IMG/VR virus record: IMGVR_UViG_3300025030_000042
Strand: one strand, 5' to 3'
Length of the DNA stretch: 64,000 nucleotides
Origin: a virus
Taxonomy: Duplodnaviria > Caudoviricetes
A program made the translations under genes and the position numbers. The notes beneath the pieces are model-generated. The model was not told the origin of the DNA. It worked only from the letters and a program-made list of their open reading frames with translations, and made no database searches. Positions 2,912 through 61,966 of this stretch are shown piece by piece (the first letter of the stretch is position 1; each line of letters starts with the position of its first letter).

Positions 2912-2919
2912 TAAATAGT
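2912..2919 (-). promoter_or_regulatory. Putative late promoter ACTATTTA
   Basis: Exact motif copy in the gap upstream of the prohead protease/bS21 operon; G at the 6th base downstream. Confidence 0.65.
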
Positions 2920-3044
2920 TCTGTAAGCCTTTAATAAACCTTATGAACATAATACCTTAATAATATCAAGCACTTACGAACCCTTACAACAATGCCTCAC
3001 GACGGGCAAATAAAATCTAATCGTACAAACTTGTCCATTATACA

Positions 3045-3938
3045 TTAAATATCACTCCCTTTATATTTATTCATCAAATCTAAAAAAAATTTTTCTGATT
3101 CTTCATTTGTTTTAGTGTGTTTGATAATGTTTTCTTTTGCTTCCAAAGGTCTTAGATTTTTTAAATCCCAACAAATCTTAAAGTTTATATGTTCCATTGA
3201 ATCATATGGAAGTAAACTTTGCGGGTATATGTGGTCAATATGCCAATATGATCCATAATTTTGCCAGTTCATATTTTCGTCAAACTGTTTTTCTAAATGA
3301 TCTTTCAGTTCTTGAACAGTATACGATAAGTGCTTAAAACAAGAACTATTACTTCTTCTATTTTTTTTCATAAAAACTTTATATATTGAACGATTAACTC
3401 TCATTTTCAACTTATAGCAAACATCCTCCCTATATCTTATTTTTTGATTTATGAGACTTTTTTCAAGCATACATTTTTTACAAATATTTGAATAACCATT
3501 TGAAAAATATTTACAAAAACGAAACTCTTTTATATTTTTTTCAACATCACAAATTTTACATATTTTATTATCAAGAATATATTCTATTTCACCATTTTGG
3601 TGTTGATTATAATATATTTCCCTATACTTTTTTGATTTTTTGCGACAACATTCTTTACATCTATTTCTTCTTCCTGATTTTAAACTTCTTTCAATGGAAA
3701 AATCATCAATTTCTTTTTCACATTTACAAACATTACAGATTTTTTTCCCTTCGTTTAAAATATTATCAATATTCTCATTTTTAATCTTCTGTTTGAGACG
3801 ATGTTGTTTTGATATTTCGCGATTACATACTTTACAAATATAACTTAAACCATCTGCGCTACGAGAATTTTTTGACCAAAACTCCTCCGTTCTTATTTTT
3901 TCTTGTTGACACTCGTTACATTTTCTTATATTCATCAT
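3045..3938 (-). CDS. HNH homing endonuclease with three tandem CxxC...CxxC modules
   Basis: C-terminal WHIDHIYPQ...LKNLRPLEAKENIIK; N-terminal repeats of K.C..C...K...F......C..C. Confidence 0.85.
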   Translation of the reverse strand: MMNIRKCNECQQEKIRTEEFWSKNSRSADGLSYICKVCNREISKQHRLKQKIKNENIDNILNEGKKICNVCKCEKEIDDFSIERSLKSGRRNRCKECCRKKSKKYREIYYNQHQNGEIEYILDNKICKICDVEKNIKEFRFCKYFSNGYSNICKKCMLEKSLINQKIRYREDVCYKLKMRVNRSIYKVFMKKNRRSNSSCFKHLSYTVQELKDHLEKQFDENMNWQNYGSYWHIDHIYPQSLLPYDSMEHINFKICWDLKNLRPLEAKENIIKHTKTNEESEKFFLDLMNKYKGSDI

Positions 3939-3948
3939 TCCTCTTCTA

Positions 3949-4269
3949 TTATATTTTCAAATATTTTTCTTTTTCAAGTGCTCTTTCTTCTTCAAGTATT
4001 TTGTTGATATTTTCTCGAAACAACTTAAAAAACTTTCGTGCTATTCTATCTTTAGAATGAGAACAATACAGATCGGTTCTGCCCGGTGTCGAGATACACC
4101 ATTCTTCTCGTTCGGGCATTTTACGAATCACGCCATCGTTTGAATAACCATAAACAAACTTATCTCCAAACTTCCCCTCGCGATCTCCGTCATCTTCTTC
4201 AATCTCTTGCCTCTCCTTAAACCTCTCGATCTCTTCGGAGATTATTCTTTTTAAATCCTTTATCTTCAT
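3949..4269 (-). CDS. Hypothetical protein with an LKRIISEE-type N-terminus (possible internal head protein)
   Basis: MKIKDLKRIISEEIERFKE start; SD GAGG and the late motif lie upstream. Confidence 0.65.
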   Translation of the reverse strand: MKIKDLKRIISEEIERFKERQEIEEDDGDREGKFGDKFVYGYSNDGVIRKMPEREEWCISTPGRTDLYCSHSKDRIARKFFKLFRENINKILEEERALEKEKYLKI

Positions 4270-4285
4270 TATTCCGCCCTCAAAC

Positions 4286-4293
4286 TAAATAGT
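4286..4293 (-). promoter_or_regulatory. Putative late promoter ACTATTTA
   Basis: Exact motif copy followed by GTTTG-A, then an SD-like GAGGGCGGA and ATG. Confidence 0.65.
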
Positions 4294-5581: not shown

Positions 5582-5587
5582 TTTCTT

Positions 5588-8961: not shown

Positions 8962-10042
8962 TGTTTATCCTTGATTTTAAAACTTGAATAATATCATTTT
9001 TTATTAATTTAAAAGATTTATCAAGTTTTAAAATTTTATTTATTAATTTTTCATTTTTATTATAATAATCATCTTTATAAATTATAATTTTAATTACCAA
9101 CCACGGATTGTATGTAGTATCGGAAGTAATTTGTATATTAAACTTATCTTGTTTTTCAATAGTATAATATTTCGGTAATATTTCATCATTTATAATTTTT
9201 TCTATTTCTGAATATTCATTTTTTTTCTGTTTATCGAATTCATCTATACTTATTGAAGTACCTGTTGAAATTTCTATAATATCCTTATCAAACGTCATGT
9301 TAAAAACTGATAATTTGTCTGAAATATTTAATAAATTTGATTCTAAATCCAATTCTTCTTTTTCATAAGGATTCTCAAAAACTTCTATTATTTCTATTTT
9401 ATCTTTTCCAAAAAAAACTGCTTGAGCTGGTTCATTATCGTGAATAATACTTTCTCCATAATCAACCATTCCATCGATATTCAAATTTCTTAAAATATAT
9501 GTCCAGATTTTAGGATTTTCATTAGCAATCATTCTAGTAATATTCCAAAAATAACCATCATAGGTTTGTACTTTAGCATCTTTTTTCCATTGTTCAATAT
9601 ATTTTTCAAAATTTTTGTTTTTATCTTTGTATTTATCAAATATTGGATTTATTTTAATATTATTTAATAATTGTTCATAATATTTTTCGTTATCTTGTAT
9701 TGAAAAATGAACAACAGCATTTAGATTTTTAGATTTAAATAAAATAACATACTTTCTATCACTAGCAAACGGAAGAGATTCATTTTCATATTTATTTAAA
9801 ATATCTTCTATTAATGGATAAGAATATATTCCAATTGGTGTATTATATTTACTTTTAGGATTTATACCCAATTTATTTATGTCTGAAAACTGAATAAAAT
9901 ATTGTGCCGGTATATTAATATATTTTTTAAGAATATCAAAAATATTTGAATTTTCCTTATTCATTTTTTTATATTTGGCAAGTTCGTCAAGTTTTTGTTC
10001 ATCAACAAACCGTCGCCAGTTTTCAAAAAGTTTATTAAACAT
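8951..10042 (-). CDS. Hypothetical protein with possible ADP-ribosyltransferase-like fold; paralog of 4583..5581
   Basis: KLGINPKSKYNTPIGIYSYPL, FWNITRM, NIDGMVDYG..IHDNEPAQAVFF; N-terminus MFNKLFENWRRFVDEQKLDE; TAATG coupling to the terminase stop. Confidence 0.55.
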   Translation of the reverse strand: MFNKLFENWRRFVDEQKLDELAKYKKMNKENSNIFDILKKYINIPAQYFIQFSDINKLGINPKSKYNTPIGIYSYPLIEDILNKYENESLPFASDRKYVILFKSKNLNAVVHFSIQDNEKYYEQLLNNIKINPIFDKYKDKNKNFEKYIEQWKKDAKVQTYDGYFWNITRMIANENPKIWTYILRNLNIDGMVDYGESIIHDNEPAQAVFFGKDKIEIIEVFENPYEKEELDLESNLLNISDKLSVFNMTFDKDIIEISTGTSISIDEFDKQKKNEYSEIEKIINDEILPKYYTIEKQDKFNIQITSDTTYNPWLVIKIIIYKDDYYNKNEKLINKILKLDKSFKLIKNDIIQVLKSRINNGK

Positions 10043-12846
10043 TATCCTTTATATATTCCCATATAATATCCCTGCTGAATCATTATATCTTGTTTAGTAG
10101 GTTTATATCCTTGTTGCCCCGGGATTCTTGTATCCAATGTCGATGTGCTAACGTGAATAGCATTCATAAATGCTTTTTTATATTCCACATCTTTTAATGA
10201 TGTCGCGAATACTTGATCCTTTATATAACAACCGATCGCGCACGCCATAATAAGATCGTCGTGACTATGGCGAGCCGCAGACGGTTTTGCGTTATTCCAA
10301 ATAAATGTTTTCAGTTCTTCATACATTCTTTTTGAATATAAATGTAGACTTCGCATTCTTATCATTTCTTCAAACTTCGCAATAATCAACGGTCTTGTTT
10401 TCGTTGTTGTAGAAAACCCTGGAACAGTATTTGACATTGATTCTGCCGCATATTGTTCAATAAACTCATTGCTTCCTTTTGTTGAATAATACATATTAGG
10501 ATATTCTAAATCTTCGATCAAGCGTTGAGTAACAAAGTATCCATTACTATTGATTTCGACCGCAATCATACATTCGCCATACTCTCTACCAGTCATATTT
10601 AACTGTTCGGAAAATAGATCGGGAGTTATTTTTCCTTTGTATTCCGCCACGATTTCCATTGTCTCAACTTTAAATACGTGAAACGCAGAAAAATCTTCGC
10701 CATCTCCACGAGCAACATCGGCAGAAATGAAATATGTCAATCCTGGTTGATAATCTTCCCAAACCCAAAGATTTCGATCGATGCCGGCGGTATATAAAGG
10801 ATCTTGAATGTGTTCAAAAACCTTTTTCATATCTTCTGGTGATATGACTGTATTGCCAGACATATTGAAGTTACAATTATGAACAATAAGATTTTCACAG
10901 ATATAAGAATTATCTTTCTCCACTTCAATATTATAAACACGAACACACTCTTCGGGACTTTCACTTTCAATATCAGAAATATTTGATATTAGCCCCCACC
11001 ACTTATCGTCATAAAATTTTGTTCTACATCCTTTCTTACTTTTAACGCCACTTTTAGTACACTCGTCTATTTTTTTTCCATCCACACTATTAAGTTCTAA
11101 AATCCAATTTGTTAAATGCTTTGGATTTTTTTTCAAATCAAATGAAACTCTGGTGTATAAATCAAATAAAGTCATTAATGTTCTAATTTGATAAATTAAT
11201 TTTTCGTTTACCAATCTTAAAACATTTTTTGTTTTAGGATTATGATATCCGTCTCCGAGCCAAACTCCATCGATCATACCCCTAATAAACTCAATATTCG
11301 TTTCAAAAATATTATTTTTAATAAGTTTGTTGTATGAATATCTTCCGGAAGTAAAAAGTTTTATTATTTCTATTAAAAATTTATTAGAAATATGAATCAC
11401 TGTACAATTAGAAGTTTCTCTTTCATAAAAGACACACCTAATCTCATATTTATTACAAAAACTTTTAACAAAATTTTTAAGTTCGTGTTCGTTTGAATGA
11501 AAAGCCAACTGAATACTATTTGGAGGATTGAGAATATTCCCTTCCGCTATATATAATCCCAAAAATTTACCAAGATCATAATCAACACTAATAAATCTTT
11601 TTGTATCTCCTTTTTGTCTAAAATATCTTGCTTTTATTTCTGTTTTATCAACACAGATATCAAACTCTGATATATCTATTTCTTTTATATTATTTTTAAA
11701 CACAGAGGAATTCAATTTCGGGAATAAACCATTTATGTATTGATTTATAACATATTGACCATATTTTTGTTCTAAATCATCTAAAGAATTCCAAGAAGTT
11801 TTAATATTTTTTGTTTCTAATAATTTCGAAAATACAGATGTGACAGTCAAAGAACCATCTACTTTTTTAATTTTTTCTAACGTTAAAATCGGATGATTTG
11901 TGGTTATTGATATATCGCTTTTTCTACACATAGGTACGCTAACTTTTTTAACTTTTTTAGAATTTTCTAAACGATTCATAGTTTTAGTTACACGCTGAAA
12001 TTTTCCAGTATGCGTTAAAACTAAATCTCCAACTTTTATATCTTCAATATATTTAAATCCATCATCTGTTATAATTTTCGTTCCACCTAAAACACATAAC
12101 AATTCTTGACCTATATCTCTCGACGTCATATTTTTTGTTTCTTTTTCATACCACGCCTGATCTCGATCGGGTCTTGAATCCCAAGGAAGTTCAACTAAAT
12201 GAAAATCATTTTCTCCAGATTTTGCTTCGGTACAGACTTTGTGAAAGAAGTTCCCTGCGCCGCAAGGCGTTGAAATCACTACACATTTTCCCTTTGTGGA
12301 CGATAGAGTGGGATATAAGGCTGCCCAGAGTTCTTCCATTCGTTCAATATGCGCCGCTTCGTCAATAACCAACAACGATAATGCTTCGGAACGACCCGCA
12401 TCCGGACTTGTCGTTGAAGCCTTTACCATTGAATCGTTTGTAAGATTAAAAGCGGATCTATTATTCACATCTGCTATTTTTGCTATTTGTTTTAACCAAT
12501 AAGGCAACTTTGTATACATATCTTTAGTTTTTCTAACAAACGCAGAAGCAACATTGTATTTTGTTGCTATAATAAGAACATTCTTTCCTTTATGAAAAAG
12601 AACCAACCAAAGAACATATGCTTGAGTTATTGTAGATATACCTAACTGTCGTGCCTTAAGAACAGCAGTAAAACGATAATCCATTAAATCTTTTATTAAA
12701 TCTTTTTGATACTGGAAGGTATTAAAGGGAACTAGCCCCTTTTTTTCATCATATATCCGAACATAGTTGGCAATAAAATAGTTCGGATCTTTTCCGCATT
12801 GTAATATTTCGTCGCGTATTTGTTGAGATGATAGTGTTGGTGGCAT
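10042..12846 (-). CDS. terL: Terminase large subunit (T4 gp17-like) containing an intein
   Basis: LKARQLGIST (Walker A region), LLVIDEAAHI (Walker B), VVISTPCG, nuclease ISADVARGDGEDFS and HDDLIMACAI. Confidence 0.95.
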   Translation of the reverse strand: MPPTLSSQQIRDEILQCGKDPNYFIANYVRIYDEKKGLVPFNTFQYQKDLIKDLMDYRFTAVLKARQLGISTITQAYVLWLVLFHKGKNVLIIATKYNVASAFVRKTKDMYTKLPYWLKQIAKIADVNNRSAFNLTNDSMVKASTTSPDAGRSEALSLLVIDEAAHIERMEELWAALYPTLSSTKGKCVVISTPCGAGNFFHKVCTEAKSGENDFHLVELPWDSRPDRDQAWYEKETKNMTSRDIGQELLCVLGGTKIITDDGFKYIEDIKVGDLVLTHTGKFQRVTKTMNRLENSKKVKKVSVPMCRKSDISITTNHPILTLEKIKKVDGSLTVTSVFSKLLETKNIKTSWNSLDDLEQKYGQYVINQYINGLFPKLNSSVFKNNIKEIDISEFDICVDKTEIKARYFRQKGDTKRFISVDYDLGKFLGLYIAEGNILNPPNSIQLAFHSNEHELKNFVKSFCNKYEIRCVFYERETSNCTVIHISNKFLIEIIKLFTSGRYSYNKLIKNNIFETNIEFIRGMIDGVWLGDGYHNPKTKNVLRLVNEKLIYQIRTLMTLFDLYTRVSFDLKKNPKHLTNWILELNSVDGKKIDECTKSGVKSKKGCRTKFYDDKWWGLISNISDIESESPEECVRVYNIEVEKDNSYICENLIVHNCNFNMSGNTVISPEDMKKVFEHIQDPLYTAGIDRNLWVWEDYQPGLTYFISADVARGDGEDFSAFHVFKVETMEIVAEYKGKITPDLFSEQLNMTGREYGECMIAVEINSNGYFVTQRLIEDLEYPNMYYSTKGSNEFIEQYAAESMSNTVPGFSTTTKTRPLIIAKFEEMIRMRSLHLYSKRMYEELKTFIWNNAKPSAARHSHDDLIMACAIGCYIKDQVFATSLKDVEYKKAFMNAIHVSTSTLDTRIPGQQGYKPTKQDIMIQQGYYMGIYKG
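10876..12096 (-). mobile_element. Intein (407 aa) with LAGLIDADG endonuclease inside terL
   Basis: Begins CVLGGTKIITDDG after GQELL and ends VYNIEVEKDNSYICENLIVHN before a +1 Cys; internal LGKFLGLYIAEGN and MIDGVWLGDG blocks. Confidence 0.92.
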
Positions 12847-13736: not shown

Positions 13737-13738
13737 TT

Positions 13739-15143: not shown

Positions 15144-15179
15144 AAAAACCCTCCAATGACAGTAAATAGTATTGGAGGG
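15144..15179 (-). terminator. Hairpin plus U-tract that sequesters the holin SD and carries the late promoter in its loop
   Basis: Coding strand CCCTCCAAT-actatttactgtc-ATTGGAGGG-TTTTT-ATG: perfect 9-bp stem (15149-15157 / 15171-15179), with GGAGG in the 3' arm. Confidence 0.75.
15163..15170 (-). promoter_or_regulatory. Putative late promoter ACTATTTA in the hairpin loop
   Basis: Exact motif; the 6th downstream base (A, 15157) is the first base of the 3' arm. Confidence 0.7.
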
Positions 15180-16420: not shown

Positions 16421-16428
16421 TAAATAGT
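16421..16428 (-). promoter_or_regulatory. Putative late promoter ACTATTTA (leaderless ATG)
   Basis: ACTATTTA-TTTGT-ATG: the 6th base is the A of the start codon; no SD. Confidence 0.65.
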
Positions 16429-16430: not shown

Positions 16431-19400
16431 TTACACTTCTATATGAGCATATCCATTTCTTTTTTCTATTACAATCTGCTGATCCACACAATCCTTTAAA
16501 TATTCAAGATGACTTATTAAAATAATCGTATCAAACTCCGTCTTCAACATTTCCAATATTCTCGTAAATCCCTCAAGATGTTCTTCATCTAACTCACTGG
16601 CAGGCTCATCGAGAATCAATATGTTTGATGTCGGTAATGTCGTTACCTTCATCAACGCCAATCGTATAGCAAAAGCAGATAAAGATTTTTCCGAACCGGA
16701 ACCAGTATCAAGTGTTCTCGCTTCGTGTTTTGGGTGTTTCAAATATATTTCAAGTTTATCATCGCGATTATCAAAATACACCTGGAAGTTTACTATAGAA
16801 GATAAAATCTTATTTATTTCTTCATTGACGACCGGCAGTTTTCTTTTAATAATATCGTAAGATATACCGTTTGAATGAAAACATTTTAAGAATAAATCCA
16901 TTGCTTCATATTGTTCTCGCAAAGTTTGTCGTTCTTCGCTTTGATTTTTTAGATCCTCCAGTTTTTGTTCCAACGAACCATTGATCTTTACCATATTATA
17001 TATTTGATTTTCACACTCTGCGATCTTTGATGATATTTCTTTTTTTATTTTCTGCTTTTCATTTTTTTGTTCAATGGTTGTTTTTATTTCTTCTATTTTT
17101 TCTTTATTTTCCCGCCATTTTTGTTCTTCCAACTTCAGGTTTACTATTTCTTGTTCTATCTTTAGCACTTCAATATTATTTTTTTGGATTTGTAGTTCAT
17201 TTTGAAGTATTGATGAGGAAATGGAAGACTTTCTTTCTACAAGTTTATTATATTTTTGAATAAAATCATTTATTTTTTCTGGGTTTAATACTTCTATTGA
17301 GTTTTTGACGGCATCTACTTTTTCTTGTAACTCGTTTAATGATTGTTGTAACTTTTGTATATTATTTGACGCCAAATGTGCGTCTTTTATAAATTTACAA
17401 GTTGGATATTCACTTCCACAGGGAACTTCTTTTAAGAGTTCCTTTTTCTTTTCGTTTTGATTTATTTTTCTATCTATATCTTTAATATCATATGATATTT
17501 GTTCTATTTCTTTTTCTTTTTCCGAGATTTCTTTTTTCTTATTTTTATATTCTTCAATATCAAAAATCTCTGAAATAAACTTCTCTATTTTTTTAATCTG
17601 TTCTTTGTCCGACAACAGAATATTTTCTCTTCTTTCATTTTCTTCTTTAAGAACCAGTAAATCTTTTTCTTTCTTTTGAAGATTTTTTAATATTTGTTCA
17701 ATATCAATAATCAAGTTGCGTGGAGAGGTGTTGATTTTATTGTCAAGTTCACTTATTTCTTTATTTATTATTTCAAACTGTGTTTTATATTCGTGACACA
17801 ATAACTTTTGTTTTTTAATATTAGAAGATGCCTGACCAATATCCCCTTGAGTTTTTATTATTATATTTTTTAAATCTTTTTCTTCTAATCTTTTTAAAGC
17901 CATGCGAACTTCGGAACTTTCTTCTTTTGCTAACTTAAACTTTTGATCAAATACCTCAAGATCAAGAAACTTTGCCAATATTTCCTTTCTTTTCGTTGAT
18001 CCTTCATTGATAAAAGTCAAAGCGCCAAACTGATCCGTCATAGAGGTGATAAGAAAATCTTCTATTGTTCCGATTGTATTTCTTATATTTTTATCAGTAT
18101 CATTTCTTGTAATACCGTTAATTTGTTCTATTTTATTATTATATATTTTTTCAAAAATAACATCAGTTTTTGCTTCTAAAGTTTCCTCTCCCTTTAACTT
18201 TTTCAAATATTTTTCAGATTTTCTGGTCACTATATACTTCTCTTCGTCAATCTCAAACTCTACTGTTCCGGTGCCCCATTCTTTATTTTGATTTATTATA
18301 GAAAGATTTTTTCGTATTCCTTTAGTTGAGGTATTAAAAAGTGTGTAGATGAGAGCTAAAACCAAACTACTTTTCCCAAAAAAATTGGGGCCGAAGACCC
18401 CAGCGACCCCTTTTATTTTCTCAAAATCTATTTTATTTCCTTCATCATAGTTATAAAGATTATCCCAAGACAAAGATTTTAACTTCCACTTCACATTTCG
18501 CATAATATCTTCATCTTGAACTAAAACAGAGTTATATTTTTTATTTAACTCAAATATTCTATTCAATATCTCTTTTTTAAGGTTATAATCCTTTAAATAT
18601 TCTTTGATCAGTTTTTCTTGAACAGTAACATCGCGAAGGTTTTCTGAAAATAGTTTCGTGTGTTGCTCCGAAATATTTCCCTTATTTGTTGCTCTACTTA
18701 AAAATGAAACATTTTCTGGAGAATATTGATACTTTGTTTGATCTATTACCCTTCGGATTGTTTCTATTGGTAGATTGTTTTCTGCTATCAAGCGGACACG
18801 AGCGTTTTTTAATATCGTTACATTGTCGGGTAACTTTCCTTCTTCAGTTAAATTGACAGAAATAAATGGTTTAGGGTTTGGGACAGAAATATGACAACAA
18901 GTAAAGACTTCTTTACTTTCTATTTCCCAAGTCAAGAAACCTTTACTATCTTCTTCGGAAAAGTTCTGTTGTATTGTTGAACCCACAAACCTTGCTTTGC
19001 CGTTATTATCTAATATTTGATTTGTTTTATGAATATCTCCGGCAAAAACATAATCAGCATTCTTAAAATCTTCTAATCCTATATCACCATTTGTTACTGT
19101 CCAACCAAGATCCGTAACTGCTCCATTAATCGTTCCGTGATATAAAAATATATTTATCTTTTCTGGATTTGATGGAATAAGTTTCCAGTTTTCCTTATCT
19201 AAAATAGATAAATGATTTAAGACAATATTGTTTCCGATATCTATTTCTTGCGAATACTTTAGATAATGAAGATTTGGGTGTTTTAGGAGATTTACAACTG
19301 GAGTTATACTATCAATACGATTTAACGATTTAAGCCCCAAATCGTGATTTCCTACGATTATATATGTTTTAGCGATATCGGCAAGATTTTTAAGAAAATC

Positions 19401-19586
19401 TGCCGCCAACAGAACCATTTCGTTACTAATATTGATTTTGGAATGAACGAGATCGCCACAATGAATAATATAATCCGGACATTCTTTTTTGAGAATGTCA
19501 TATATTTGTTTAAATATTTCTTTATATTCTTGATGACGCTGATAAGTTCGGATGTGAGTATCGCTGATTTGAACAATCTTGGTCAT
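16431..19586 (-). CDS. Fused Mre11/SbcD nuclease and Rad50/SbcC ATPase (gp47-gp46-like)
   Basis: ISDTH, HCGDLVH, VGNHD, GDIH phosphoesterase motifs; GPNFFGKSSL Walker A; coiled coil with a CGSEYPTC hook; GSGSE signature, ILILDEP, ISH. Confidence 0.92.
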   Translation of the reverse strand: MTKIVQISDTHIRTYQRHQEYKEIFKQIYDILKKECPDYIIHCGDLVHSKINISNEMVLLAADFLKNLADIAKTYIIVGNHDLGLKSLNRIDSITPVVNLLKHPNLHYLKYSQEIDIGNNIVLNHLSILDKENWKLIPSNPEKINIFLYHGTINGAVTDLGWTVTNGDIGLEDFKNADYVFAGDIHKTNQILDNNGKARFVGSTIQQNFSEEDSKGFLTWEIESKEVFTCCHISVPNPKPFISVNLTEEGKLPDNVTILKNARVRLIAENNLPIETIRRVIDQTKYQYSPENVSFLSRATNKGNISEQHTKLFSENLRDVTVQEKLIKEYLKDYNLKKEILNRIFELNKKYNSVLVQDEDIMRNVKWKLKSLSWDNLYNYDEGNKIDFEKIKGVAGVFGPNFFGKSSLVLALIYTLFNTSTKGIRKNLSIINQNKEWGTGTVEFEIDEEKYIVTRKSEKYLKKLKGEETLEAKTDVIFEKIYNNKIEQINGITRNDTDKNIRNTIGTIEDFLITSMTDQFGALTFINEGSTKRKEILAKFLDLEVFDQKFKLAKEESSEVRMALKRLEEKDLKNIIIKTQGDIGQASSNIKKQKLLCHEYKTQFEIINKEISELDNKINTSPRNLIIDIEQILKNLQKKEKDLLVLKEENERRENILLSDKEQIKKIEKFISEIFDIEEYKNKKKEISEKEKEIEQISYDIKDIDRKINQNEKKKELLKEVPCGSEYPTCKFIKDAHLASNNIQKLQQSLNELQEKVDAVKNSIEVLNPEKINDFIQKYNKLVERKSSISSSILQNELQIQKNNIEVLKIEQEIVNLKLEEQKWRENKEKIEEIKTTIEQKNEKQKIKKEISSKIAECENQIYNMVKINGSLEQKLEDLKNQSEERQTLREQYEAMDLFLKCFHSNGISYDIIKRKLPVVNEEINKILSSIVNFQVYFDNRDDKLEIYLKHPKHEARTLDTGSGSEKSLSAFAIRLALMKVTTLPTSNILILDEPASELDEEHLEGFTRILEMLKTEFDTIILISHLEYLKDCVDQQIVIEKRNGYAHIEV

Positions 19587-21113: not shown

Positions 21114-21141
21114 AGAATATCACAAAAGCGAAAAATGTCAA
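21114..21141 (-). promoter_or_regulatory. Putative sigma70-type early promoter for the primase/Mre11-Rad50 islet
   Basis: TTGACA (21141-21136), 16-bp spacer with TG-n, TATTCT (21119-21114), then 6 nt to the ATG at 21107. Confidence 0.55.
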
Positions 21142-21663: not shown

Positions 21664-22368
21664 CTATTGTTTTTTGTTCCATCTTTTAAAATGAACGATA
21701 TGCCAAATCGCACACTGACTCACATTATATATTTTTGATATTTCGACTATTGACATTTCTTGTTTATAATATAACTCTCGAATTTTATCGACTTTTTCCC
21801 AATCAAGTTTTGCGTTCGGATTACCACTACCAGCATTTTTTATATTCATTTTTTGTTTTGTAACATCAGAATGACATTTTCCAAACATAGGATTTTTTTC
21901 ACCATTTGTATCATAATGATTTTTACTCATCTTTTCTTTCGCCTCTTTGGTGTGAGTTTTTCCAAAAAATGAATTATTTTCTTTACAATATTTTCCCTTT
22001 CTAGATTCACTTATATTTTTTCTATGTTCTTCAGAAAAATGTTTATTATAATGAGGATGATTTATGCTACTTAAAAATCCATTTCCACCCAAATGTACAT
22101 TACATAAATTTTCCAATCCATACCAATCGATCAAAAACTGTTCATATTTGTATGCTTTGTTTTCAGCATCAGTTCCATAAAATAATTTTACTTTTATACG
22201 GATCACTTTTTTAAATCCGATTTTTTTCATTTTATTAACACAATATTTATTTCTTTTTTTATTTACATTTATTCTATCGCCACTTCCTTTTCCTACATAA
22301 AATACGGGCGTTCCATATTTTCTCGGATCGTGAAACTCGTAAACATAATGAATTTTATCATTATTCAC
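21664..22368 (-). CDS. GIY-YIG-superfamily homing endonuclease with NUMOD3-like repeats and HTH
   Basis: HYVYEFHDPR...FYVGKGSGDR; SEEHRKNISE and GKTHTKEAKEKMS repeats; C-terminal HTH. Confidence 0.8.
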   Translation of the reverse strand: MNNDKIHYVYEFHDPRKYGTPVFYVGKGSGDRINVNKKRNKYCVNKMKKIGFKKVIRIKVKLFYGTDAENKAYKYEQFLIDWYGLENLCNVHLGGNGFLSSINHPHYNKHFSEEHRKNISESRKGKYCKENNSFFGKTHTKEAKEKMSKNHYDTNGEKNPMFGKCHSDVTKQKMNIKNAGSGNPNAKLDWEKVDKIRELYYKQEMSIVEISKIYNVSQCAIWHIVHFKRWNKKQ

Positions 22369-22381: not shown

Positions 22382-23533
22382 TTAAAAAATGTCCGTCTTC
22401 AGTTTTATCAAATAGTCGTCCGCTTCTCGCTTGCGCAAAGGTCGTGCCAACTTGGCAATCGCAATCAAGTTTTTGTCGTCATCAAAAATACCAATCTTTG
22501 AAATATATGTAATCTTTTCATATGATCCAGTATATCCGGTCCAAGGAGATTTAACAATATTTTTTGCTTGTATATCTTCTCTTTCTCTATATGAAACGGA
22601 ACTTGTCAATGCCACTAAAGATCCCGATTGCGATCGATCAATAAATGTCGGGTTATTAGAAAAGTTAAGTTCTCCTTTTCTTGCGTGACAGTTCATTGTT
22701 ATGGTATTTACATAGTTAACACCTTCAAAAGATAAACTAAATGATGACGAGGGAGCACCATTGGTAAATCCAAAATAAGTCCACCGAGGAACAACAGAAC
22801 CACCACCAGTTGTATACACTTCGGTATGTTCCGTTGTCAAATCCCAGGTTCCAGTTAAAACCATAAATCCTTCGTTGTATAATACAACACCCGCAACAGA
22901 TCCAGATTGATTGCTTCCAGATGGTTCGGTTTGAACAAGTTCTCCATTTTGCCTTAAATCTTGGGCTCTGGAAATCATTGTTCCGGAAACATAAAACTTT
23001 AAATCTACGCTACCTTTTCTAATACTGGAACCATAAAATATACTGGGAATAGATATAAGTCCGATTTCTTGCGTTGATTTGTCTCCGAGACCGATTTCGG
23101 TGTTATAAGAATAATGCGGCGACCATTTAGAATAATAGTTTAAAGTATTTTTTAATGCCGTTATTCTTGCTCTTGAAGAGTTACTTGAATAAAACTCTTT
23201 TGATATTGATGCCGTCATTGGATATGATCCGGTAATCGTATCTCCATAAGAATAATCGGCGTGATATGAAGTTTTTGTTACCGCTTTTAAAGAATACGGA
23301 TCGGAACCTTTAACCACGAACGGATATATCATTGAAGTTGATAGACGATCAACATTTATTTCGTGAAGACTGATGCTTCCTTGTGGTGTGTGAGTTACAA
23401 TATTCGTAAAAGAACCGGACTCTTTAAAAATATTGTTATAATATATGTTTCGATCATATATTATAAAGTCTGCGCGCGGATAGGTTTTGATGCGGGAATA
23501 TAGAAGATCACCTTCTTTGAACTTATAAAACAT
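22382..23533 (-). CDS. Baseplate/tail structural protein with a tail-collar-fibre-like C-terminal domain
   Basis: NFSNNPTF...YISKIGIFDDDKNLIAIAKLARPLRK, paralogous to the C-terminus of 26962..28035. Confidence 0.7.
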   Translation of the reverse strand: MFYKFKEGDLLYSRIKTYPRADFIIYDRNIYYNNIFKESGSFTNIVTHTPQGSISLHEINVDRLSTSMIYPFVVKGSDPYSLKAVTKTSYHADYSYGDTITGSYPMTASISKEFYSSNSSRARITALKNTLNYYSKWSPHYSYNTEIGLGDKSTQEIGLISIPSIFYGSSIRKGSVDLKFYVSGTMISRAQDLRQNGELVQTEPSGSNQSGSVAGVVLYNEGFMVLTGTWDLTTEHTEVYTTGGGSVVPRWTYFGFTNGAPSSSFSLSFEGVNYVNTITMNCHARKGELNFSNNPTFIDRSQSGSLVALTSSVSYREREDIQAKNIVKSPWTGYTGSYEKITYISKIGIFDDDKNLIAIAKLARPLRKREADDYLIKLKTDIF

Positions 23534-23546
23534 TCATAGTAAATAG
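23520..23546. repeat. 27-bp direct repeat, copy 1 (late motif plus first codons MFYKF of 22382..23533)
   Basis: aacttataaaacattcatagtaaatag matches 26802..26828 at 26 of 27 bases. Confidence 0.85.
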
Positions 23547-23547
23547 T
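23540..23547 (-). promoter_or_regulatory. Putative late promoter ACTATTTA
   Basis: ACTATTTA-CTATG-A-ATG; no SD. Confidence 0.65.
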
Positions 23548-23551
23548 ATAT

Positions 23552-24457
23552 TTAACCAACTCTCCAAATTTCAAAACTTGAACTTAAAATAGTTACAACC
23601 TTTCCGGATTTTGTTGACAAAACATCTAAATCAATATAATGAGAACCAGAAACAAATTCTATATAATAAAATCCACTATTCGGTAGACTTTGCAATTTAG
23701 TAGATGCGGGAATTTCTGAGTGAAAGTGTATAGTATTAGTATCATCAATTTGAATTCTTATGTTAACATTATTCGATGAATCATAATTCCACATATAATT
23801 CCATCCAACTCTATATGTCCCATTATTTAAAATATTTATTGGTATTGTAAATACTTGTTGGTAATTTGTATCAGTGGTACTAAAGACTGTATTTGAACGA
23901 GATTGCGAAAAATTATGCCCAAAAAACGATACATTAGAATCAATTTGATTAAATTTTACATCTATCCCCTCTAAATGAGCTGATAAATTTTCTATATTAT
24001 CTGAATATAAACCACTTCCAGTTACGGGAGAATAACTAGATGGAACAAAATCAATATCTAATTTATCTCCATCAATTTCATCAAAACCACCAGATAAATG
24101 TCTTAGAGAGTGACTATCAATATCGATATCATCTATGAGATTTACATTTACAATATTAAATCCATTAATGTTTAAGTTTCCAGATAAAGGTCTGGAACCA
24201 TCAGTTAAAAGTTCTTCTTGTGGTATACAAAATGATGCTGTAGCGGAGTGATAAAAAATAATATCGTTTAGCGAAGATTCTTCTGCGGGAGACAAAGACG
24301 GCTCAATATATATATAAATTGTATCTCCAACTCTATTAATATATTGTAATTCTTTGGAGATTAAAGAACTTCCGGTTATTTCTTGTGTTAGTTCACATAA
24401 TTCTATTTGTCCAAAAGAAGAACTAAAACTACTCGTGGTGTATATATATTGTGCCAT
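23552..24457 (-). CDS. Putative tail fibre/adaptor protein; paralog of 24466..25071
   Basis: Shares H..GG.DEIDGDKL.I.F.P..Y.P, LSAHLEGID, FSTT...Q and Y...WNY.WN with its neighbour. Confidence 0.55.
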   Translation of the reverse strand: MAQYIYTTSSFSSSFGQIELCELTQEITGSSLISKELQYINRVGDTIYIYIEPSLSPAEESSLNDIIFYHSATASFCIPQEELLTDGSRPLSGNLNINGFNIVNVNLIDDIDIDSHSLRHLSGGFDEIDGDKLDIDFVPSSYSPVTGSGLYSDNIENLSAHLEGIDVKFNQIDSNVSFFGHNFSQSRSNTVFSTTDTNYQQVFTIPINILNNGTYRVGWNYMWNYDSSNNVNIRIQIDDTNTIHFHSEIPASTKLQSLPNSGFYYIEFVSGSHYIDLDVLSTKSGKVVTILSSSFEIWRVG

Positions 24458-26761: not shown

Positions 26762-26769
26762 TAAATAGT
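26762..26769 (-). promoter_or_regulatory. Putative late promoter ACTATTTA
   Basis: ACTATTTA-CTTAA-A-AGGAG upstream of the beta-helix gene. Confidence 0.65.
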
Positions 26770-26801
26770 CTTTTTTTAGTCTTTTAAATTATTGATTATT
26801 A

Positions 26802-26828
26802 AACTTATAGAACATTCATAGTAAATAG
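26802..26828. repeat. 27-bp direct repeat, copy 2 (orphan promoter plus mini-ORF MFYKFNNQ*)
   Basis: aacttatagaacattcatagtaaatag; the ATG at 26815 reads MFYKFNNQ-stop (26789), compared with MFYKFKEG in the intact gene. Confidence 0.85.
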
Positions 26829-26844
26829 AAGGGAGGAGAATGTT

Positions 26845-26961
26845 TTATTCTCTATATGAAATTGCTTTTCCAGCATATGTATCTGTTTTTTTGTGACATT
26901 CAACACACATTTCTTCCGACTTGTTCAAAAATCTTCTACAATCAACGAATCTTTGATAATC
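26845..26961 (-). pseudogene. HNH endonuclease C-terminal remnant
   Basis: Minus-strand frame reads ...EEMCVECHKKTDTYAGKAISYRE*, the characteristic C..CH..TD HNH tail; the rest of the domain is absent. Confidence 0.6.
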
Positions 26962-28035: not shown

Positions 28036-29325
28036 TTATATATTTCCTCTTTGTTGACTCTTACTTCTTAAGATTTTCTTGATTTTTTCCAACCTTTCCT
28101 TACTATAAATATTATCTATATTTATATATTTTTCAGATAAATATATTATATGTTTTATTTCTTTAAGACCGAGATTATATTCTTTCGCCAAATCTTTTAT
28201 GAAATAGTTTTCTGTATCATATTTCTTTCTAATATCTATTACAATATTATCTTCAACTCTTTCTTTTTTACTTTTTTTAATGTTTTCTTTTAGATAACTC
28301 CAAGATTTTCCTAGGACTATACCACTAATAGTGGTTTGATTTACATTATATTCTCTTGCGAGTTCTTTTTGGGAATATTTACCAGAATCATATTTTGCTC
28401 TCATTTCTTTTACTTGTTTTTCTACCAATATAGAAGAAGCGTTCTTTTCTCCAACATTACTTTTCTTTTTATTTACTTCTTCAGAATGTTTTCTTCCTTT
28501 GTTTAACTTTCCATTTTCCGATTTTCTTTTACTTTCTATTTCCTTAAGTCTTTCTGGAGTTATTATATTTTCAATGTGCTTCCAACTAATAGAATGTAAA
28601 ACTTTTCTTATAGTAATAACTTTTACGTCATATTGATTTGCCAAATCTTTTTGCTCATATTGTCCGGTGTTATATTTTTCTCGTATTTCTAATACTTGTT
28701 TTTCGTTAAGTTTTGAATCGCTTCTTGCCTCTCCTTTTGGTATCCAACGCCCTTTATTCATTTGTTTTCTTTTTTCAATAAGTTTTGAAAGTTCTTTTTC
28801 GTTAATATCAGAAATATATTTCCAACTTTTTCTATTTATTATCCTTGAAACAGTTTCTCGTTTTACATTATATCTTTCTGCTATTTCATTAGGATATAAT
28901 CCTATTAAATATAATCTTAATATTTCTTTTGCTTTTTCAAAATCTAAAATGGTATTACTTCTTTTTAATGATATTTCATTAATTTTATCAATAGAATATT
29001 TATATCCTAAAGTGCTACCGGCAATCTTACAAGTATTATATCCTATCTCTGGTCTCCACGGTTCAAAGCAATCAAGATACCATTGCTCTGTTCTTAATAC
29101 ATTTTGTTTTTTGTTTATTATTTTTATTGGAATAAAACTAAAGTTTTCTTCACCATATTTATTCCAAGCATTTTGTAATCTTACCGAAAAATGCTCATTA
29201 TTTTGCAATGCTTTAAAATGTGCTTTTTTCCGTTGTTTAAAAGATTGAGAAGAACTTCCTAAATAAAACTTAAAGTTGATATTATTAACTATTATATATA
29301 TTCCTATTTTCCCCAACGAAATCAT
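28036..29325 (-). CDS. GIY-YIG homing endonuclease with four tandem HTH modules
   Basis: IGIYIIVNNINFKFYLGSS; repeats of L.EKQV.EIR.KY..G.Y.QKDLA..Y.V...TI..I....SW. Confidence 0.88.
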   Translation of the reverse strand: MISLGKIGIYIIVNNINFKFYLGSSSQSFKQRKKAHFKALQNNEHFSVRLQNAWNKYGEENFSFIPIKIINKKQNVLRTEQWYLDCFEPWRPEIGYNTCKIAGSTLGYKYSIDKINEISLKRSNTILDFEKAKEILRLYLIGLYPNEIAERYNVKRETVSRIINRKSWKYISDINEKELSKLIEKRKQMNKGRWIPKGEARSDSKLNEKQVLEIREKYNTGQYEQKDLANQYDVKVITIRKVLHSISWKHIENIITPERLKEIESKRKSENGKLNKGRKHSEEVNKKKSNVGEKNASSILVEKQVKEMRAKYDSGKYSQKELAREYNVNQTTISGIVLGKSWSYLKENIKKSKKERVEDNIVIDIRKKYDTENYFIKDLAKEYNLGLKEIKHIIYLSEKYINIDNIYSKERLEKIKKILRSKSQQRGNI

Positions 29326-29328: not shown

Positions 29329-30219
29329 TTACACCTTGATATATCTGCACGGAATATTCAAAGAATATCCAGTAGTTGCGCCCATTACACTCACATAACT
29401 ATCAATATACTTTACTGTTGTGCTCGAACCATTCTTATTCGTCATCGAAACAGTTGACCCTATTAAATCAAATAGATAATCCGAGCTGTTTAAATCTATA
29501 CTCGATTGTATACTAAAAGTCAAGACTGTTCCTCTCGGTCCGTCAATCGCCTGTGTCGGTAAAGTTTGCCTCTCGGTATTTTCAGATACTTGGTCATCCG
29601 TCCCCAAACTCAAGAAATAACTGGCGATACTATCATCATTTATATATGAAACTCTCGCCAGCGTTCCATTCGTAGAAACAATCTTTCCAAATCTATTGTC
29701 GATCTCAATCATATATTGAGTTTCAATAAGATCCGCATCAATCGTAAAGTTTGGACTAATCGCAGTGGTGTGTAATCCCTGATCCAATCTTATATAAGTT
29801 CCGCCCGTTCCACTTTCTCCTGGAATTATACCGGTTAAAGTAAGAAATAAATCTTCTGTTGCTTTATTTACTGCCACCACAAACGATCCAATACTGTGCA
29901 TCGCTGTGGTTGGACTGAAAACAGTATTTATTCTTATTACCGGCAAATATAGAAGGTTTGTTCGAGGAATACTAATAAGTTTATGTTTCCCGATCGAAGT
30001 ATCGTTTGTGAATGCTTCAAAAATCGGCGTTTGTAAAATCGACAGATCATAATAAGCACTTCCAGAGGTATGATTTGGATTATATTGCGTATAATCGATT
30101 TCGTCGTCAAAGCAAGCAAACTTTGTTACCTTAAACTCGCCTTTGGCAAGTCTTAAACGACCAAGATCTGTCAAAACGACGTCAAGTTGAACGTCAGAAT
30201 CGTTTGATAAAAAAGCCAT
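29329..30219 (-). CDS. Virion structural protein with a tail-collar-fibre-like N-terminal motif
   Basis: DVVLTDLGRLRLAKGEFKVTKFACFDDEIDY; paralog of 37623..38495. Confidence 0.7.
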   Translation of the reverse strand: MAFLSNDSDVQLDVVLTDLGRLRLAKGEFKVTKFACFDDEIDYTQYNPNHTSGSAYYDLSILQTPIFEAFTNDTSIGKHKLISIPRTNLLYLPVIRINTVFSPTTAMHSIGSFVVAVNKATEDLFLTLTGIIPGESGTGGTYIRLDQGLHTTAISPNFTIDADLIETQYMIEIDNRFGKIVSTNGTLARVSYINDDSIASYFLSLGTDDQVSENTERQTLPTQAIDGPRGTVLTFSIQSSIDLNSSDYLFDLIGSTVSMTNKNGSSTTVKYIDSYVSVMGATTGYSLNIPCRYIKV

Positions 30220-48927: not shown

Positions 48928-48935
48928 TAAATACT
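48928..48935 (-). promoter_or_regulatory. Putative late promoter, variant AGTATTTA
   Basis: AGTATTTA-CTGTA-G-CA-ATG upstream of the giant gene; no SD. Confidence 0.55.
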
Positions 48936-52248: not shown

Positions 52249-52266
52249 GTTTTAATATCCTCAATA

Positions 52267-52274
52267 TAAATAGG
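52267..52274 (-). promoter_or_regulatory. Putative late promoter, variant CCTATTTA
   Basis: CCTATTTA-TATTG-A-GGAT upstream of gp6. Confidence 0.55.
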
Positions 52275-52277
52275 ATT

Positions 52278-58219: not shown

Positions 58220-58221
58220 TT

Positions 58222-59145: not shown

Positions 59146-59384
59146 ATATTATAAGACTCCAACTTTTTTAAATGTTGTTTAAAAAAAGTTATCTTTTTAT
59201 CATTCCAACCATTATATAGATACATTTCTACTTCTGGTTCTTTTACCCAAAATATTTTATATGCCACTTCATAATCGTCTATATTTTCTGCCATATATTC
59301 TCCAATAACCATATAAATCATTCCAATACTTTTTTTATAGTTGATATGTTCAATCAAATCTCCAACTTTAAGCATTTTTAACAT
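59142..59384 (-). CDS. Small KOW/SH3-like (KVGDL) protein
   Basis: MLKVGDLIEHI...IGMIY...YKIFWV; overlaps both neighbours. Confidence 0.55.
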   Translation of the reverse strand: MLKMLKVGDLIEHINYKKSIGMIYMVIGEYMAENIDDYEVAYKIFWVKEPEVEMYLYNGWNDKKITFFKQHLKKLESYNI

Positions 59385-61650
59385 CCTTCATCGTGACCAC
59401 ACAAGATTGCGCCACAGATATCTGGCTTGTCGGTATTATGCCTCCGGTAGTGTTGATTTGACCTATATTTGCAACAACTACCGCATAGTTATCGGTAAAC
59501 TCTTTTCCAGTTAACCAACTTTCTTTTGGTAACCTCATTTCATAATGCCATGCTTCGTGTTGATAGTTTTGGATACCAAATAAATAGGAGTTTTCTTTCA
59601 ACCATTTATATAATTTTGTTTGTTTTTGTTGTTCATTGATTTTACTATTTGGAGTCAATCCAAGATTTCCAAGATCAAATGCTAATCCAAGTTCGTGTGG
59701 TGAATTATAGGCTAGCAATTTTCTCCCTTTTTCTATGGAACCATATTTCGATATCAAAACTTGCTCATAATGTTCTCTGCTTTTCCAGCGATGTTGTCTC
59801 CAGCCACTTGCCACTTTTATTTCTTGTTCCCCGGTATCTTTTTGCCACTTCGCATTCATCGCCATAAATCTTTTGGCAACTAATATATGTAAATATTGTT
59901 GTCCCCCAACACTTGGAATTTTTACCAACAATCCACTATCAAAACTCAAAGGTATTCCATAATCTTTAACATACACTCTGCTTTCTTTAAATGGTTCTGC
60001 CTTTTTTAAAGAAACGCCTTGTGGTATCTTCGTTTGAGTTCCAGTTTTTATTTTAGCGCTTGGTGAAGTAGGAGCATTACCTGTAACTGGAGATTTACTG
60101 TCTGGTTGTTTAGGAATTTGATTTTTTGTTGTCTCCGGAGGATTTTCGTCATCCGCGATTTGTTCAGGTTTTGACAAAGTATTACTATTTGTTGATTCAT
60201 TTTTATTTGGACCGACATATTGTAACGCATAATCACCAATATCTCTATGAGACTTGCCATTTAATACTTCAATATTTACATTTTTTACACTTGCCGATAT
60301 TTTATTTTTAAAATCTTTTGCTTTTTTAAATGGCGTTCCTTTTTCTTGAACCAATATATCATATTGAACATTTGAATCTTTGCTTACATATTTATCCCAA
60401 ACGCTTTGAATATAATCTCCAAAATCGCCATCCGAAAAAACAATCTTATTTGGTTTAACGAAATCAAAACTTAGCGATGCTGTCTTTATAGCACCGCCAC
60501 CAGCAGAATGACCAACAATGGTTATATATCCCACATTCAAAGAACTGGAAAAACTTTCTTTTAAAATATTCAAAACTTCTTGGTGAAATCTTCCAAAGTT
60601 ATCCTTTCCCGTCCAAGCACTTGTTTGTCTGCCGGTAGGTGTTTTGGTATTTATACTCCACGGAAGTTCTGGGATTATAATAACAAAGTTTCTTTTTTGT
60701 TCTTTCGACATTTTTTTTGAGGACTGTATAATCCTTTTCTCAAAATCATGTCCATCTCCAAACTCTTTAAATCCGTGGAAATAATAAATAAGTTCTACTG
60801 GCGCTGAAAAATCAGTAGACACTGGAGAATAAATGATTGTTTCTCTTTTTCCGGAAAGATGTTGTTCGTCTTGAAGACCATTGGAAGGCAGATTTCCTAT
60901 CCAGGATATTCCTTTTATATTATTTTTTTCTATTGCCTTCACCCATTTATTTACTACTATTGGAGAAAACTTGTGTCCCTTCAACAACTTATTTTCGCCC
61001 AATACAGAACTGTAAGATTTTCTTGGCAATAATGGAAGTCCTGTATGAGATAACGCTTTATTTTTTCCAGGAATATCCGAGCCTTTTGGAGTATTTGAGT
61101 TTAATCCTCCGGAACAACTGTTGTGCTGTGTTGCTCCACTTACAGATCCAACGGAAGTTGGCGCGGTATTTGTATTATCTACCGGTCGAATATACATTGG
61201 ATCTTGATAGTTTACTTTATCAACAAAATCTACCCACACTAACGAACCGACTTGAGGAGATGGAACTTGATCGCTTTGCGCAATAAATGTTGGATACATT
61301 TCTATGGTCGCTATATCATTATTATTTTCTGGTATTGGTAACGCGGAATGTATTTCTGGTATTCTTGCTTTAATACGGACGAATTTTGGTTTTGAGTCTT
61401 CGGATCCTAAAAAAGAACCAAAAAAGTCAGACACCCAACTTCCTGCTTCTGGTTTTGAAGGAACTTCTTCTACTTGTAAAACGATTGCTTTAAATGGTCC
61501 AACATTTGCCAGGGCATTTGGAGTAAAAACTTGTTCCGTTATTCTTTTAAATAACTTTATTGGGTCGTCGGTATAGAAATCAATCTTTTCGGTGATTTGA
61601 GGGATCTGAATGGGGTTCAGAACGCCGTGAGATGGAATCTTCGGAGGCAT
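59368..61650 (-). CDS. gp5-like hub protein: OB-fold, alpha/beta hydrolase and M15 (VanY-like) peptidase
   Basis: PQVGSLVWVDFVD (OB-fold); YYFHG and VGHSAGG (GxSxG); SGWR, SPHELGLAFD (Hx6D) and EAWHY (Zn peptidase). Confidence 0.8.
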   Translation of the reverse strand: MPPKIPSHGVLNPIQIPQITEKIDFYTDDPIKLFKRITEQVFTPNALANVGPFKAIVLQVEEVPSKPEAGSWVSDFFGSFLGSEDSKPKFVRIKARIPEIHSALPIPENNNDIATIEMYPTFIAQSDQVPSPQVGSLVWVDFVDKVNYQDPMYIRPVDNTNTAPTSVGSVSGATQHNSCSGGLNSNTPKGSDIPGKNKALSHTGLPLLPRKSYSSVLGENKLLKGHKFSPIVVNKWVKAIEKNNIKGISWIGNLPSNGLQDEQHLSGKRETIIYSPVSTDFSAPVELIYYFHGFKEFGDGHDFEKRIIQSSKKMSKEQKRNFVIIIPELPWSINTKTPTGRQTSAWTGKDNFGRFHQEVLNILKESFSSSLNVGYITIVGHSAGGGAIKTASLSFDFVKPNKIVFSDGDFGDYIQSVWDKYVSKDSNVQYDILVQEKGTPFKKAKDFKNKISASVKNVNIEVLNGKSHRDIGDYALQYVGPNKNESTNSNTLSKPEQIADDENPPETTKNQIPKQPDSKSPVTGNAPTSPSAKIKTGTQTKIPQGVSLKKAEPFKESRVYVKDYGIPLSFDSGLLVKIPSVGGQQYLHILVAKRFMAMNAKWQKDTGEQEIKVASGWRQHRWKSREHYEQVLISKYGSIEKGRKLLAYNSPHELGLAFDLGNLGLTPNSKINEQQKQTKLYKWLKENSYLFGIQNYQHEAWHYEMRLPKESWLTGKEFTDNYAVVVANIGQINTTGGIIPTSQISVAQSCVVTMKDVKNA

Positions 61651-61652
61651 TT

Positions 61653-61952
61653 TTATTTTGTTTCATTTATTTCGCTAAATAGATCATTAGCTTCTTCTTC
61701 TGATAGTTCTATACTATTTTCTCCAGTTTCTTTTTTTCTTAATATCTCACCAATTTTAATTAACTGTTCGTTTGATCTTTGAAGCGCTTCAACATATTTA
61801 GCAAGTATCAATCCTGCTTTGGGAATATTTTCTTCATTTTTCTTTATATATTCAAGCGATGTAAGATAACCTATACCAGCTCGATCGCGATCATCGTTGA
61901 TATTTTTTAATGCTTGTATTAATGCTTCTTCTGAGGTTTTACTTTTTGCCAT
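61653..61952 (-). CDS. Hypothetical helical protein
   Basis: ATG at 61952 directly after the late motif; YVEALQRSNEQLIKI. Confidence 0.65.
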   Translation of the reverse strand: MAKSKTSEEALIQALKNINDDRDRAGIGYLTSLEYIKKNEENIPKAGLILAKYVEALQRSNEQLIKIGEILRKKETGENSIELSEEEANDLFSEINETK

Positions 61953-61958
61953 CACAAA

Positions 61959-61966
61959 TAAATAGA
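61959..61966 (-). promoter_or_regulatory. Putative late promoter, variant TCTATTTA
   Basis: TCTATTTA-TTTGT-G-ATG right after the sigma-factor stop. Confidence 0.6.

Follow-up and report, generated by a model that had tools for sequence, protein, structure and literature searches.

CTATTTA as a probable late promoter box without a -35 element in an uncultured phage distantly related to T4

The late promoters of bacteriophage T4 carry the box TATAAATA, which spans positions -13 to -6 and is read by the sigma factor gp55 together with gp33 and the gp45 clamp (PMC2988020, PMC7892883). Here, gp55 takes up the flipped non-template bases -12, -9 and -8 in pockets lined by Y97, N13/H95 and T99 (PMC7892883). 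The late promoter of Aeromonas phage Aeh1 has a/gC at -13/-12 (cited in PMC2988020). In this study we analyzed a stretch of 64,000 nucleotides (the window) of the uncultured phage IMGVR_UViG_3300025030_000042, in which a different short element, the CTATTTA box, precedes genes of the virion module. We consider it probable that CTATTTA is a -10-type late promoter without a -35 element, used by this phage and its clade and most likely read by a sigma factor of the gp55 family which the phage itself encodes.

The phage is a 211-kb groundwater phage with a distant relation to T4, and contigs from groundwater metagenomes, with lengths up to 210,866 bp, carry proteins identical to its own. The window has a GC content of 32.5%, carries every real gene on the minus strand and contains only ~840 nt of non-coding DNA. 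Family scans identified a T4-type portal, a gp21-type prohead protease, gp6-like and gp25-like baseplate wedge proteins, a primase, a RuvC-like resolvase, a fused SbcD-SbcC protein, a terminase with an intein, several homing endonucleases and a gene for the ribosomal protein bS21. By the portal protein (44% identity) the nearest cultured phages were Flavobacterium phage vB_FspM_immuto and Microcystis phage Mel-JY01; a megablast search with 12 kb of the window against cultured phages gave no match. Judged by its genes and by the portal similarity, the window belongs to a distant member of the T4 superfamily.

As in T4, the element is an AT-rich box of 8 bp, lacks a -35 and is located in tiny gaps before virion genes. 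The phage likewise encodes a putative gp55-family sigma, and the implied start of transcription lies 5-6 nt after the box. In contrast to T4, the box reads A-CTA[T/C/A]TTA and in some cases abuts the start codon. An earlier reading of the window without database searches (the sequence-only reading) had proposed a distinct -10-only specificity unlike that of T4. Our analysis agrees with it, since the box is conserved across the clade and differs from TATAAATA, and the sigma gene adjoins the first box. The motif was found to be undescribed in the literature searched on CTATTTA or TATTTATA as a phage late promoter, on leaderless T4-like late promoters and on Immutovirus.

Position of the box in the window and in related phages

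The core CTATTTA was present in 18 copies on the coding strand of the window and in 4 copies on the template strand, where 10-21 were expected under Markov models. Ten of the 18 coding-strand copies end at most 45 nt before a start codon, a zone that comprises 3.8% of the positions. The probability of this clustering is 2e-10 under a uniform model and 2e-9 when compared to 7-mers of the same composition. In an unbiased scan of the 45 nt before starts, CTATTTA ranked first of all 7-mers (p = 1.5e-11). Its 21 single-base variants had no more than one copy each near a start and were thus inert, and therefore all seven positions of the box matter. The raw number of exact ACTATTTA copies in the whole window was not significant (9 versus 5.6 expected from shuffles). 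The signal of the box resides in strand and position and not in the raw count.

All ten sites listed in that reading were present, each on the minus (coding) strand. The six exact ACTATTTA copies among them were confirmed as well, but their true number is nine, since the copies at 7136, 13876 and 25973, all intragenic, had been overlooked. Two further boxes near starts (boxes 2 and 5 in Table 1) had been missed because they are located in the 3' ends of upstream open reading frames (ORFs). The statement that most intergenic gaps carry the motif can be made more precise: a box is present in 9 of the 14 gaps of at least 15 nt.

The sixth base after the box was a purine in all 12 window boxes, as had been claimed (background 0.56, P ~1e-3), but it cannot be called fixed across the clade, since only 63% of the boxes in relatives share it. 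The same held for position +9 (12 of 12), and pyrimidines occupied positions +1 and +2 in 10 of 12. The extended form of the box is A-CTATTTA-YY.

The T4-type box TATAAATA (or NATAAATA) does not take this place in the window. Only 2 of the 10 coding-strand copies of TATAAATA are located near starts, both within an A-rich spacer, and no copy of CTAAATA was found near a start in the window. A scan with the sigma-70 consensus revealed no enrichment (83 found, 85 expected) and was uninformative. The orientation test at divergent and convergent junctions comprised 5 junctions only, none of which carried a box.

Relatives of the phage were gathered via the 383-aa protein encoded behind box 8 (37-49% identity), and three long IMG/VR contigs (G001, G003 and G004) as well as the genome of the Flavobacterium phage vB_FspM_immuto (MW353176) were fetched completely. 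At 37-50% protein identity the relatives use the box A-CTA[T/C/A]TTA without a -35. CTATTTA was the top upstream 7-mer in G004 (3e-10) and strongly enriched in G001 and G003. In agreement with the earlier notion that a consistent -35 is lacking, 109 pooled sites yielded the same consensus, with information only at the seven core positions and at -1.

Conservation was most evident at the 296-aa gene behind box 5. Here, CTATTTA, CTACTTA or CTAATTA was found 19-40 nt upstream of the orthologue in 11 of 11 relatives, and thus the position is conserved despite drift of the sequence. The 383-aa gene showed a different picture: most relatives had no box but a clear Shine-Dalgarno sequence (SD) coupled to the upstream gene, and in the window and the relative L006 a box lies 6-8 nt before the ATG and the SD is missing. 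The comparison points to promoter turnover at this gene.

In the Flavobacterium phage, [A/C]TATTTAT is present before the portal gene and many other genes. Its top upstream 7-mer was ATATTTA (38 of 106 copies, p 1e-28), followed by CTATTTA as a second form, and its leaders were A-rich and had no SD. The reverse complement of its extended box, [A/C]TATTTATAA, is identical to T4 TATAAATA.

In gaps of at least 70 nt the box was nearer to the downstream start than to the upstream stop in 31 of 44 sites, and it was often found 15-27 nt from the ATG even in gaps of hundreds of nt. On the template strand the box was depleted in all four genomes analyzed, with 4, 3, 4 and 11 copies observed versus 9.7, 12.4, 7.7 and 14.5 expected according to a second-order model (in total 22 versus ~44). 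Selection against antisense firing would produce such a depletion.

When all genomes were pooled, the first ATG of a long ORF followed the box after either 4-9 nt (12 sites) or 15-38 nt, and no site had 10-14 nt. The short class had no SD and the long class (at least 15 nt) had one; both recur in the relatives. No SD core of the long class started earlier than the fifth base behind the box, and the SD cores clustered exactly at this base (9 sites). The ATG of the short class started at the fifth to seventh base in 8 of the 12 sites and as far as the tenth base in the rest. Neither an ATG nor an SD began before the fifth base, and this common boundary is the pattern expected if transcription, as in T4, started ~5-6 nt downstream of the box.

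Four window genes belong to the short class. All of them start with ATG and have no SD, and the close spacing that the sequence-only reading had noted for them was found (5, 6, 6 and 8 nt after the box). The N-termini of three were confirmed by homologues or public gene calls, and for the fourth, the 398-aa gene, no alternative Met is present in the first 50 codons. Leaderless mRNAs for these four genes are therefore a coherent and plausible prediction.

Leaderless mRNAs are a general phenomenon in bacteria and phages, a well-known example being lambda cI transcribed from PRM. In likeness to these, the ATG of the four genes lacks an SD and is found at the spacing where transcription from a -10-type box would begin. 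Unlike lambda cI, the predicted leaderless messages would form a recurrent class within one phage promoter family. The suggestion of systematic leaderless translation of major structural genes was, in turn, overstated. Only 4 of 12 boxes are of the leaderless type, and the operons of the major capsid and of the protease are SD-led. The four genes code for the 99-aa acidic protein, for the 3474-aa protein and for two proteins that are fibre- or lectin-like but uncharacterised, none of which is a known major structural protein. Look-ups in the Atlas assigned no function to the 383-aa and 296-aa proteins; for the 398-aa protein they returned just a generic domain of secreted proteins.

The adjacent sigma gene and the comparison with T4

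The gene directly upstream of box 1 codes for a protein of 238-239 aa. It matched ORFs of the relatives with 50% identity (phmmer E 1e-68), and these in turn match phrog_234, annotated as late sigma transcription factor. This family was the best match for 4 of 4 aligned members (best E 3e-6). A profile of 77 sequences aligned with T4 gp55 over 142 columns (hhalign, E 2e-4); a sequence search of the PDB with the profile found nothing. The AlphaFold (AF2) model reached a pLDDT of 93. Foldseek alone gave weak E-values only, and re-alignment with VIA gave T4 gp55 in the promoter open complex (7d7c_F) as the top match with a Z of 10.9, all other top rows being sigma factors as well. Based on homology and the model, we assign the gene to a divergent gp55-family sigma factor. 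At 50% identity the family comprises 1,753 clusters.

The putative sigma is ~55 residues longer than T4 gp55. Its C-terminal half (~145-239) is modelled as an additional domain of three to four helices that aligns with region 4 of extracytoplasmic function (ECF) sigmas. T4 gp55 has no such region-4-like half, and the hydrophobic C-terminal tail of T4 gp55 is not present in the window protein.

Box 1 is followed by a gene for an acidic helical protein of 99 aa. Its model shows a helical hairpin that is joined by a flexible linker to a short C-terminal helix, and this helix carries the motif D-[LI]-[FY]-[DS]-[ME]-[IL], which we take to resemble clamp-binding tails. The protein may represent an analogue of gp33.

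With aCTATTTA placed in the T4 register (-13 to -6), the positions -11, -10, -7 and -6 are identical to T4. At the three flipped positions (-12, -9 and -8) the box has C, T and T, where T4 has A throughout, and the weakly specified -13 differs as well. In the hhalign alignment Y97 of T4 gp55 is kept (Y102), and H95, T99 and N13 are exchanged for F100, S104 and T23, respectively. Because the alignment of the two sigmas is remote, we put forward as a hypothesis, and not as a result, that changes of these pocket residues underlie the changed specificity of the box. The box of Aeh1 likewise begins with aC, and thus the gp55 family tolerates re-specification at -12. Unlike the window phage, which has TT at -9/-8, Aeh1 keeps AAATA at -10 to -6. 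Altogether, the data are best described as a genuine variant of the late-promoter system of T4, which is shared across the clade and whose box is putatively re-specified.

Genes behind the boxes and other features of the region

Boxes precede the gp6-like wedge gene, the operon of protease and bS21, and fibre-like genes (Table 1). Just beyond the window they also precede an operon with the gp23 capsid gene and a gp13-like gene. No box was found before the genes of the primase, the RuvC-like resolvase and SbcCD. A sugar island of 19.9 kb, made up of genes for nucleotide sugars and glycans, that ends at the gp55-like gene contained a single intragenic copy and none near a start of its 29 genes. 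In total, 11 of 51 genes had a box near the start versus 0 of 29 genes of the sugar island (Fisher P = 0.0045). This restriction to the virion module fits a late gene class.

The genes for the RuvC-like protein and the primase are preceded by a good sigma-70-type promoter (TTGACA, 16 nt, TG-TATTCT), a candidate early or middle promoter of another class.

The bS21 gene codes for a 105-aa protein that matches Pfam Ribosomal_S21. Phages that encode bS21 have been described as large freshwater and groundwater phages with predicted Bacteroidetes hosts, which carry the gene in a structural block (Chen et al. 2022, PMC9723584). In its gene arrangement the window phage resembles them, bS21 being located in the same block as the terminase, portal, protease and capsid genes. 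That paper treats neither promoters nor leaders, and the words "promoter" and "motif" do not occur in it.

Individual boxes showed some particular features. Box 1 directly follows the stop codon of the sigma gene; the start of the 99-aa gene behind it is the same in public gene calls, and the N-terminus MAK.K is shared with a relative. The variant AGTATTTA before the 3474-aa gene is the weakest site, being one of 9 coding-strand copies of GTATTTA; homologues in relatives begin at the same residues. The 383-aa gene has an in-frame stop codon immediately before its ATG, and its N-terminus is conserved from residue 2. A near-identical block of ~32 nt was found at boxes 6 and 8 (within 26780-26860 and 23498-23578), box 6 and the next ~25 nt being a copy of box 8 and the first codons of the 383-aa gene. 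As this copy leaves a mini-ORF of 8 codons, a promoter cassette has been duplicated here.

Box 10 is located in the loop of a hairpin that has ~12 base pairs and five T's behind it (dG -17.8 kcal/mol, z -4.2). The 3' arm of this hairpin is the GGAGG SD of the 82-aa gene. A read-through RNA would mask this SD, an RNA begun at box 10 would not.

Further genes of the region are listed in Table 1. SbcD (Mre11-like) and SbcC (Rad50-like) are present as one fused protein, the large terminase contains a Hint-type intein, and homing endonucleases are scattered across the module. For a 90-aa ORF near the high-coordinate end an exact look-up gave no record.

Table 1. Positions of the boxes and of other features in the window and upstream of its high-coordinate end
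Feature	Position	Strand	Following gene or context	Remarks
Box 1, TCTATTTA	61959-61965	-	ATG 61952, 99-aa gene	6 nt, no SD, leaderless type
Box 2	61676-61682	-	ATG 61650, 760-aa gene	25 nt
Box 3, CCTATTTA	52267-52273	-	TTG 52248, gp6-like baseplate wedge gene	18 nt, SD GAGGA
Variant box, AGTATTTA	48928-48934	-	ATG 48919, 3474-aa gene	8 nt, no SD
Box 5	30252-30258	-	ATG 30219, 296-aa gene (29329-30219)	32 nt, SD-led
Box 6, TCTATTTA	26822-26828	-	8-codon mini-ORF	duplicate of box 8 region
Box 7	26762-26768	-	ATG 26739, 540-aa beta-helix protein	22 nt, SD AAGGAG
Box 8	23540-23546	-	ATG 23533, 383-aa gene	6 nt, no SD, leaderless type
Box 9	16421-16427	-	ATG 16415, 398-aa gene	5 nt, no SD, leaderless type
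Box 10	15163-15169	-	ATG 15143, 82-aa gene	19 nt, in loop of stem-loop
Box 11	4286-4292	-	ATG 4269, 106-aa gene	16 nt, SD GAGG from fifth base after box
Box 12	2912-2918	-	ATG 2874, operon of prohead protease, 161-aa gene and bS21 gene	37 nt
gp55-family late sigma factor (putative)	61975-62694	-	directly upstream of box 1	238-239 aa
Acidic helical protein	61653-61952	-	next after gp55-like gene, always so in relatives (synteny G001, G003, G004)	99 aa
Sugar island	L066 1-19856		upstream of high-coordinate end of window	~20 kb, 29 genes; NeuB, DegT, epimerases, formyltransferase
Stem-loop	15144-15185	-	82-aa gene	
Candidate sigma-70-type promoter	21114-21141	-	RuvC-like and primase genes	
bS21 gene	1430-1747	-	protease operon	105 aa
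Large terminase with intein	10042-12846	-		Hint-type intein
Fused SbcD-SbcC	16431-19586	-		1051 aa
Homing endonuclease	28036-29325			GIY-YIG
Homing endonuclease	687-1430			GIY-YIG
Homing endonuclease	30220-31374			endonuclease VII/HNH-like
Homing endonuclease	3045-3938			endonuclease VII/HNH-like
Homing endonuclease	21664-22368			
90-aa ORF	62989-63261			

Alternative readings and meaning of the box

According to the reading that we favor, the host core RNA polymerase together with the gp55-like sigma would read the box on the non-template strand, and with the box at -13 to -6 transcription would start ~5-6 nt downstream. Because such a start meets two kinds of spacing between box and gene, two classes of mRNA would result. 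One would begin at the AUG or within a few bases of it and be leaderless, as predicted for the four window genes, the other would begin at the SD or just before it.

Several points weigh against this reading. A search for RNA runs that contain the phage listed none. The window sigma itself matches phrog_234 at an E of 1.7e-3 only, and the link to T4 gp55 is remote with an hhalign probability of 48%. The structural Z-score is tied (within 1) with those of other sigma factors, and therefore "sigma region 2 fold, nearest to gp55" is the safe wording. Different from T4, neither gp33 nor gp45 was recognised. The comparison of the 99-aa protein with T4 gp33 gave an hhalign E of 0.27, no PHROG match and only generic fold matches. 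The gp45 clamp (phrog_223 and PF02916) had no match in the five relatives searched, where the controls were silent too, so that this result says nothing about absence. Furthermore, eight coding-strand copies of CTATTTA in the window are intragenic. The relatives are partly redundant, so that pooled P-values overstate independence, and their gene starts were taken from a crude ORF rule.

The box could also be a promoter of another factor, either a host sigma or an ECF-type sigma of the phage, with the gp55-like neighbour being unrelated to it. The pairing of sigma and box is indeed inferred by us, and the C-terminal half of the gp55-like model aligns with region 4 of ECF sigmas as mentioned above. 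We nevertheless regard this as unlikely, since the box lacks the -35 that is normally required by ECF and primary sigmas, TATTTA agrees with TATAAT in just 3 of 6 positions and lacks the final T, and each of the genomes examined had both a gp55-like gene and the box, the latter with lineage-specific variants. That CTATTTA is instead the processing site of an RNA endonuclease, which would create 5' ends near starts by cleavage of polycistronic transcripts, would be compatible with its location between the genes of long operons that run in one direction. For T4 it has also been cautioned that mapped 5' ends may be products of processing (PMC2988020). We consider a processing site improbable: seven invariant bases whose single-base variants are inert rather suggest recognition of DNA by a protein, a site existing only in sense RNA is not expected to be depleted on the template strand, and in long non-coding gaps the box is found at the end, beside the downstream start.

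Two further readings have very little in their favor in our view. The functional element could be the reverse complement TAAATAG, which contains the T4 core TAAATA, so that T4-type late promoters would fire antisense; TATTTA is in fact the reverse complement of TAAATA, and the extended box of the Flavobacterium phage, CTATTTATAA, equals TATAAATA on the opposite strand. In this case, however, the invariant C would be the unconserved -5 of T4, and the positions corresponding to -12/-13, critical in T4, are only 40-59% conserved. The position beside downstream starts and the depletion on the template strand argue against it as well: the element tracks these starts and obeys the spacing rule of ATG and SD, and the orientation in which TAAATAG would fire in sense is the depleted one, which makes little biological sense. 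As barely probable we also rate a translation enhancer or ribosome-binding signal independent of the SD. The four genes with a box 5-8 nt upstream have no SD and the phage encodes its own bS21, as such a signal might suggest, but an enhancer should hold a fixed distance and the box is found 4 to 45 nt from the ATG, mostly with an SD in between.

If CTATTTA is a late promoter read by the gp55-like sigma, a wider interpretation may be put forward, which we regard as speculative. The phage and its relatives would represent a large undescribed branch of gp55 (>1,700 clusters at 50% identity), in which the three flipping pockets are re-specified for CTAYTTA, late mRNAs start at the AUG or the SD, and the own bS21 is encoded in a late operon. 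Transcription specificity and the mode of translation initiation would then be switched jointly in the late phase.

gp55, the textbook example of a minimal sigma, has no characterised target other than TATAAATA and near variants. A clade-wide switch to CTAYTTA at exactly the flipped bases would be a natural experiment on the specificity of a sigma that uses region 2 only. For thousands of uncultured T4-like phages the box would provide a practical rule for the annotation of transcription units. Since the cultured relative vB_FspM_immuto carries a related box, experiments are feasible. According to the two spacing classes, a considerable part of the late messages in bS21-carrying phages would be leaderless or initiated at the SD. 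It has long been suspected that the ribosomal proteins of phages are linked to a selective translation of late mRNAs, and this link would thereby become directly testable.

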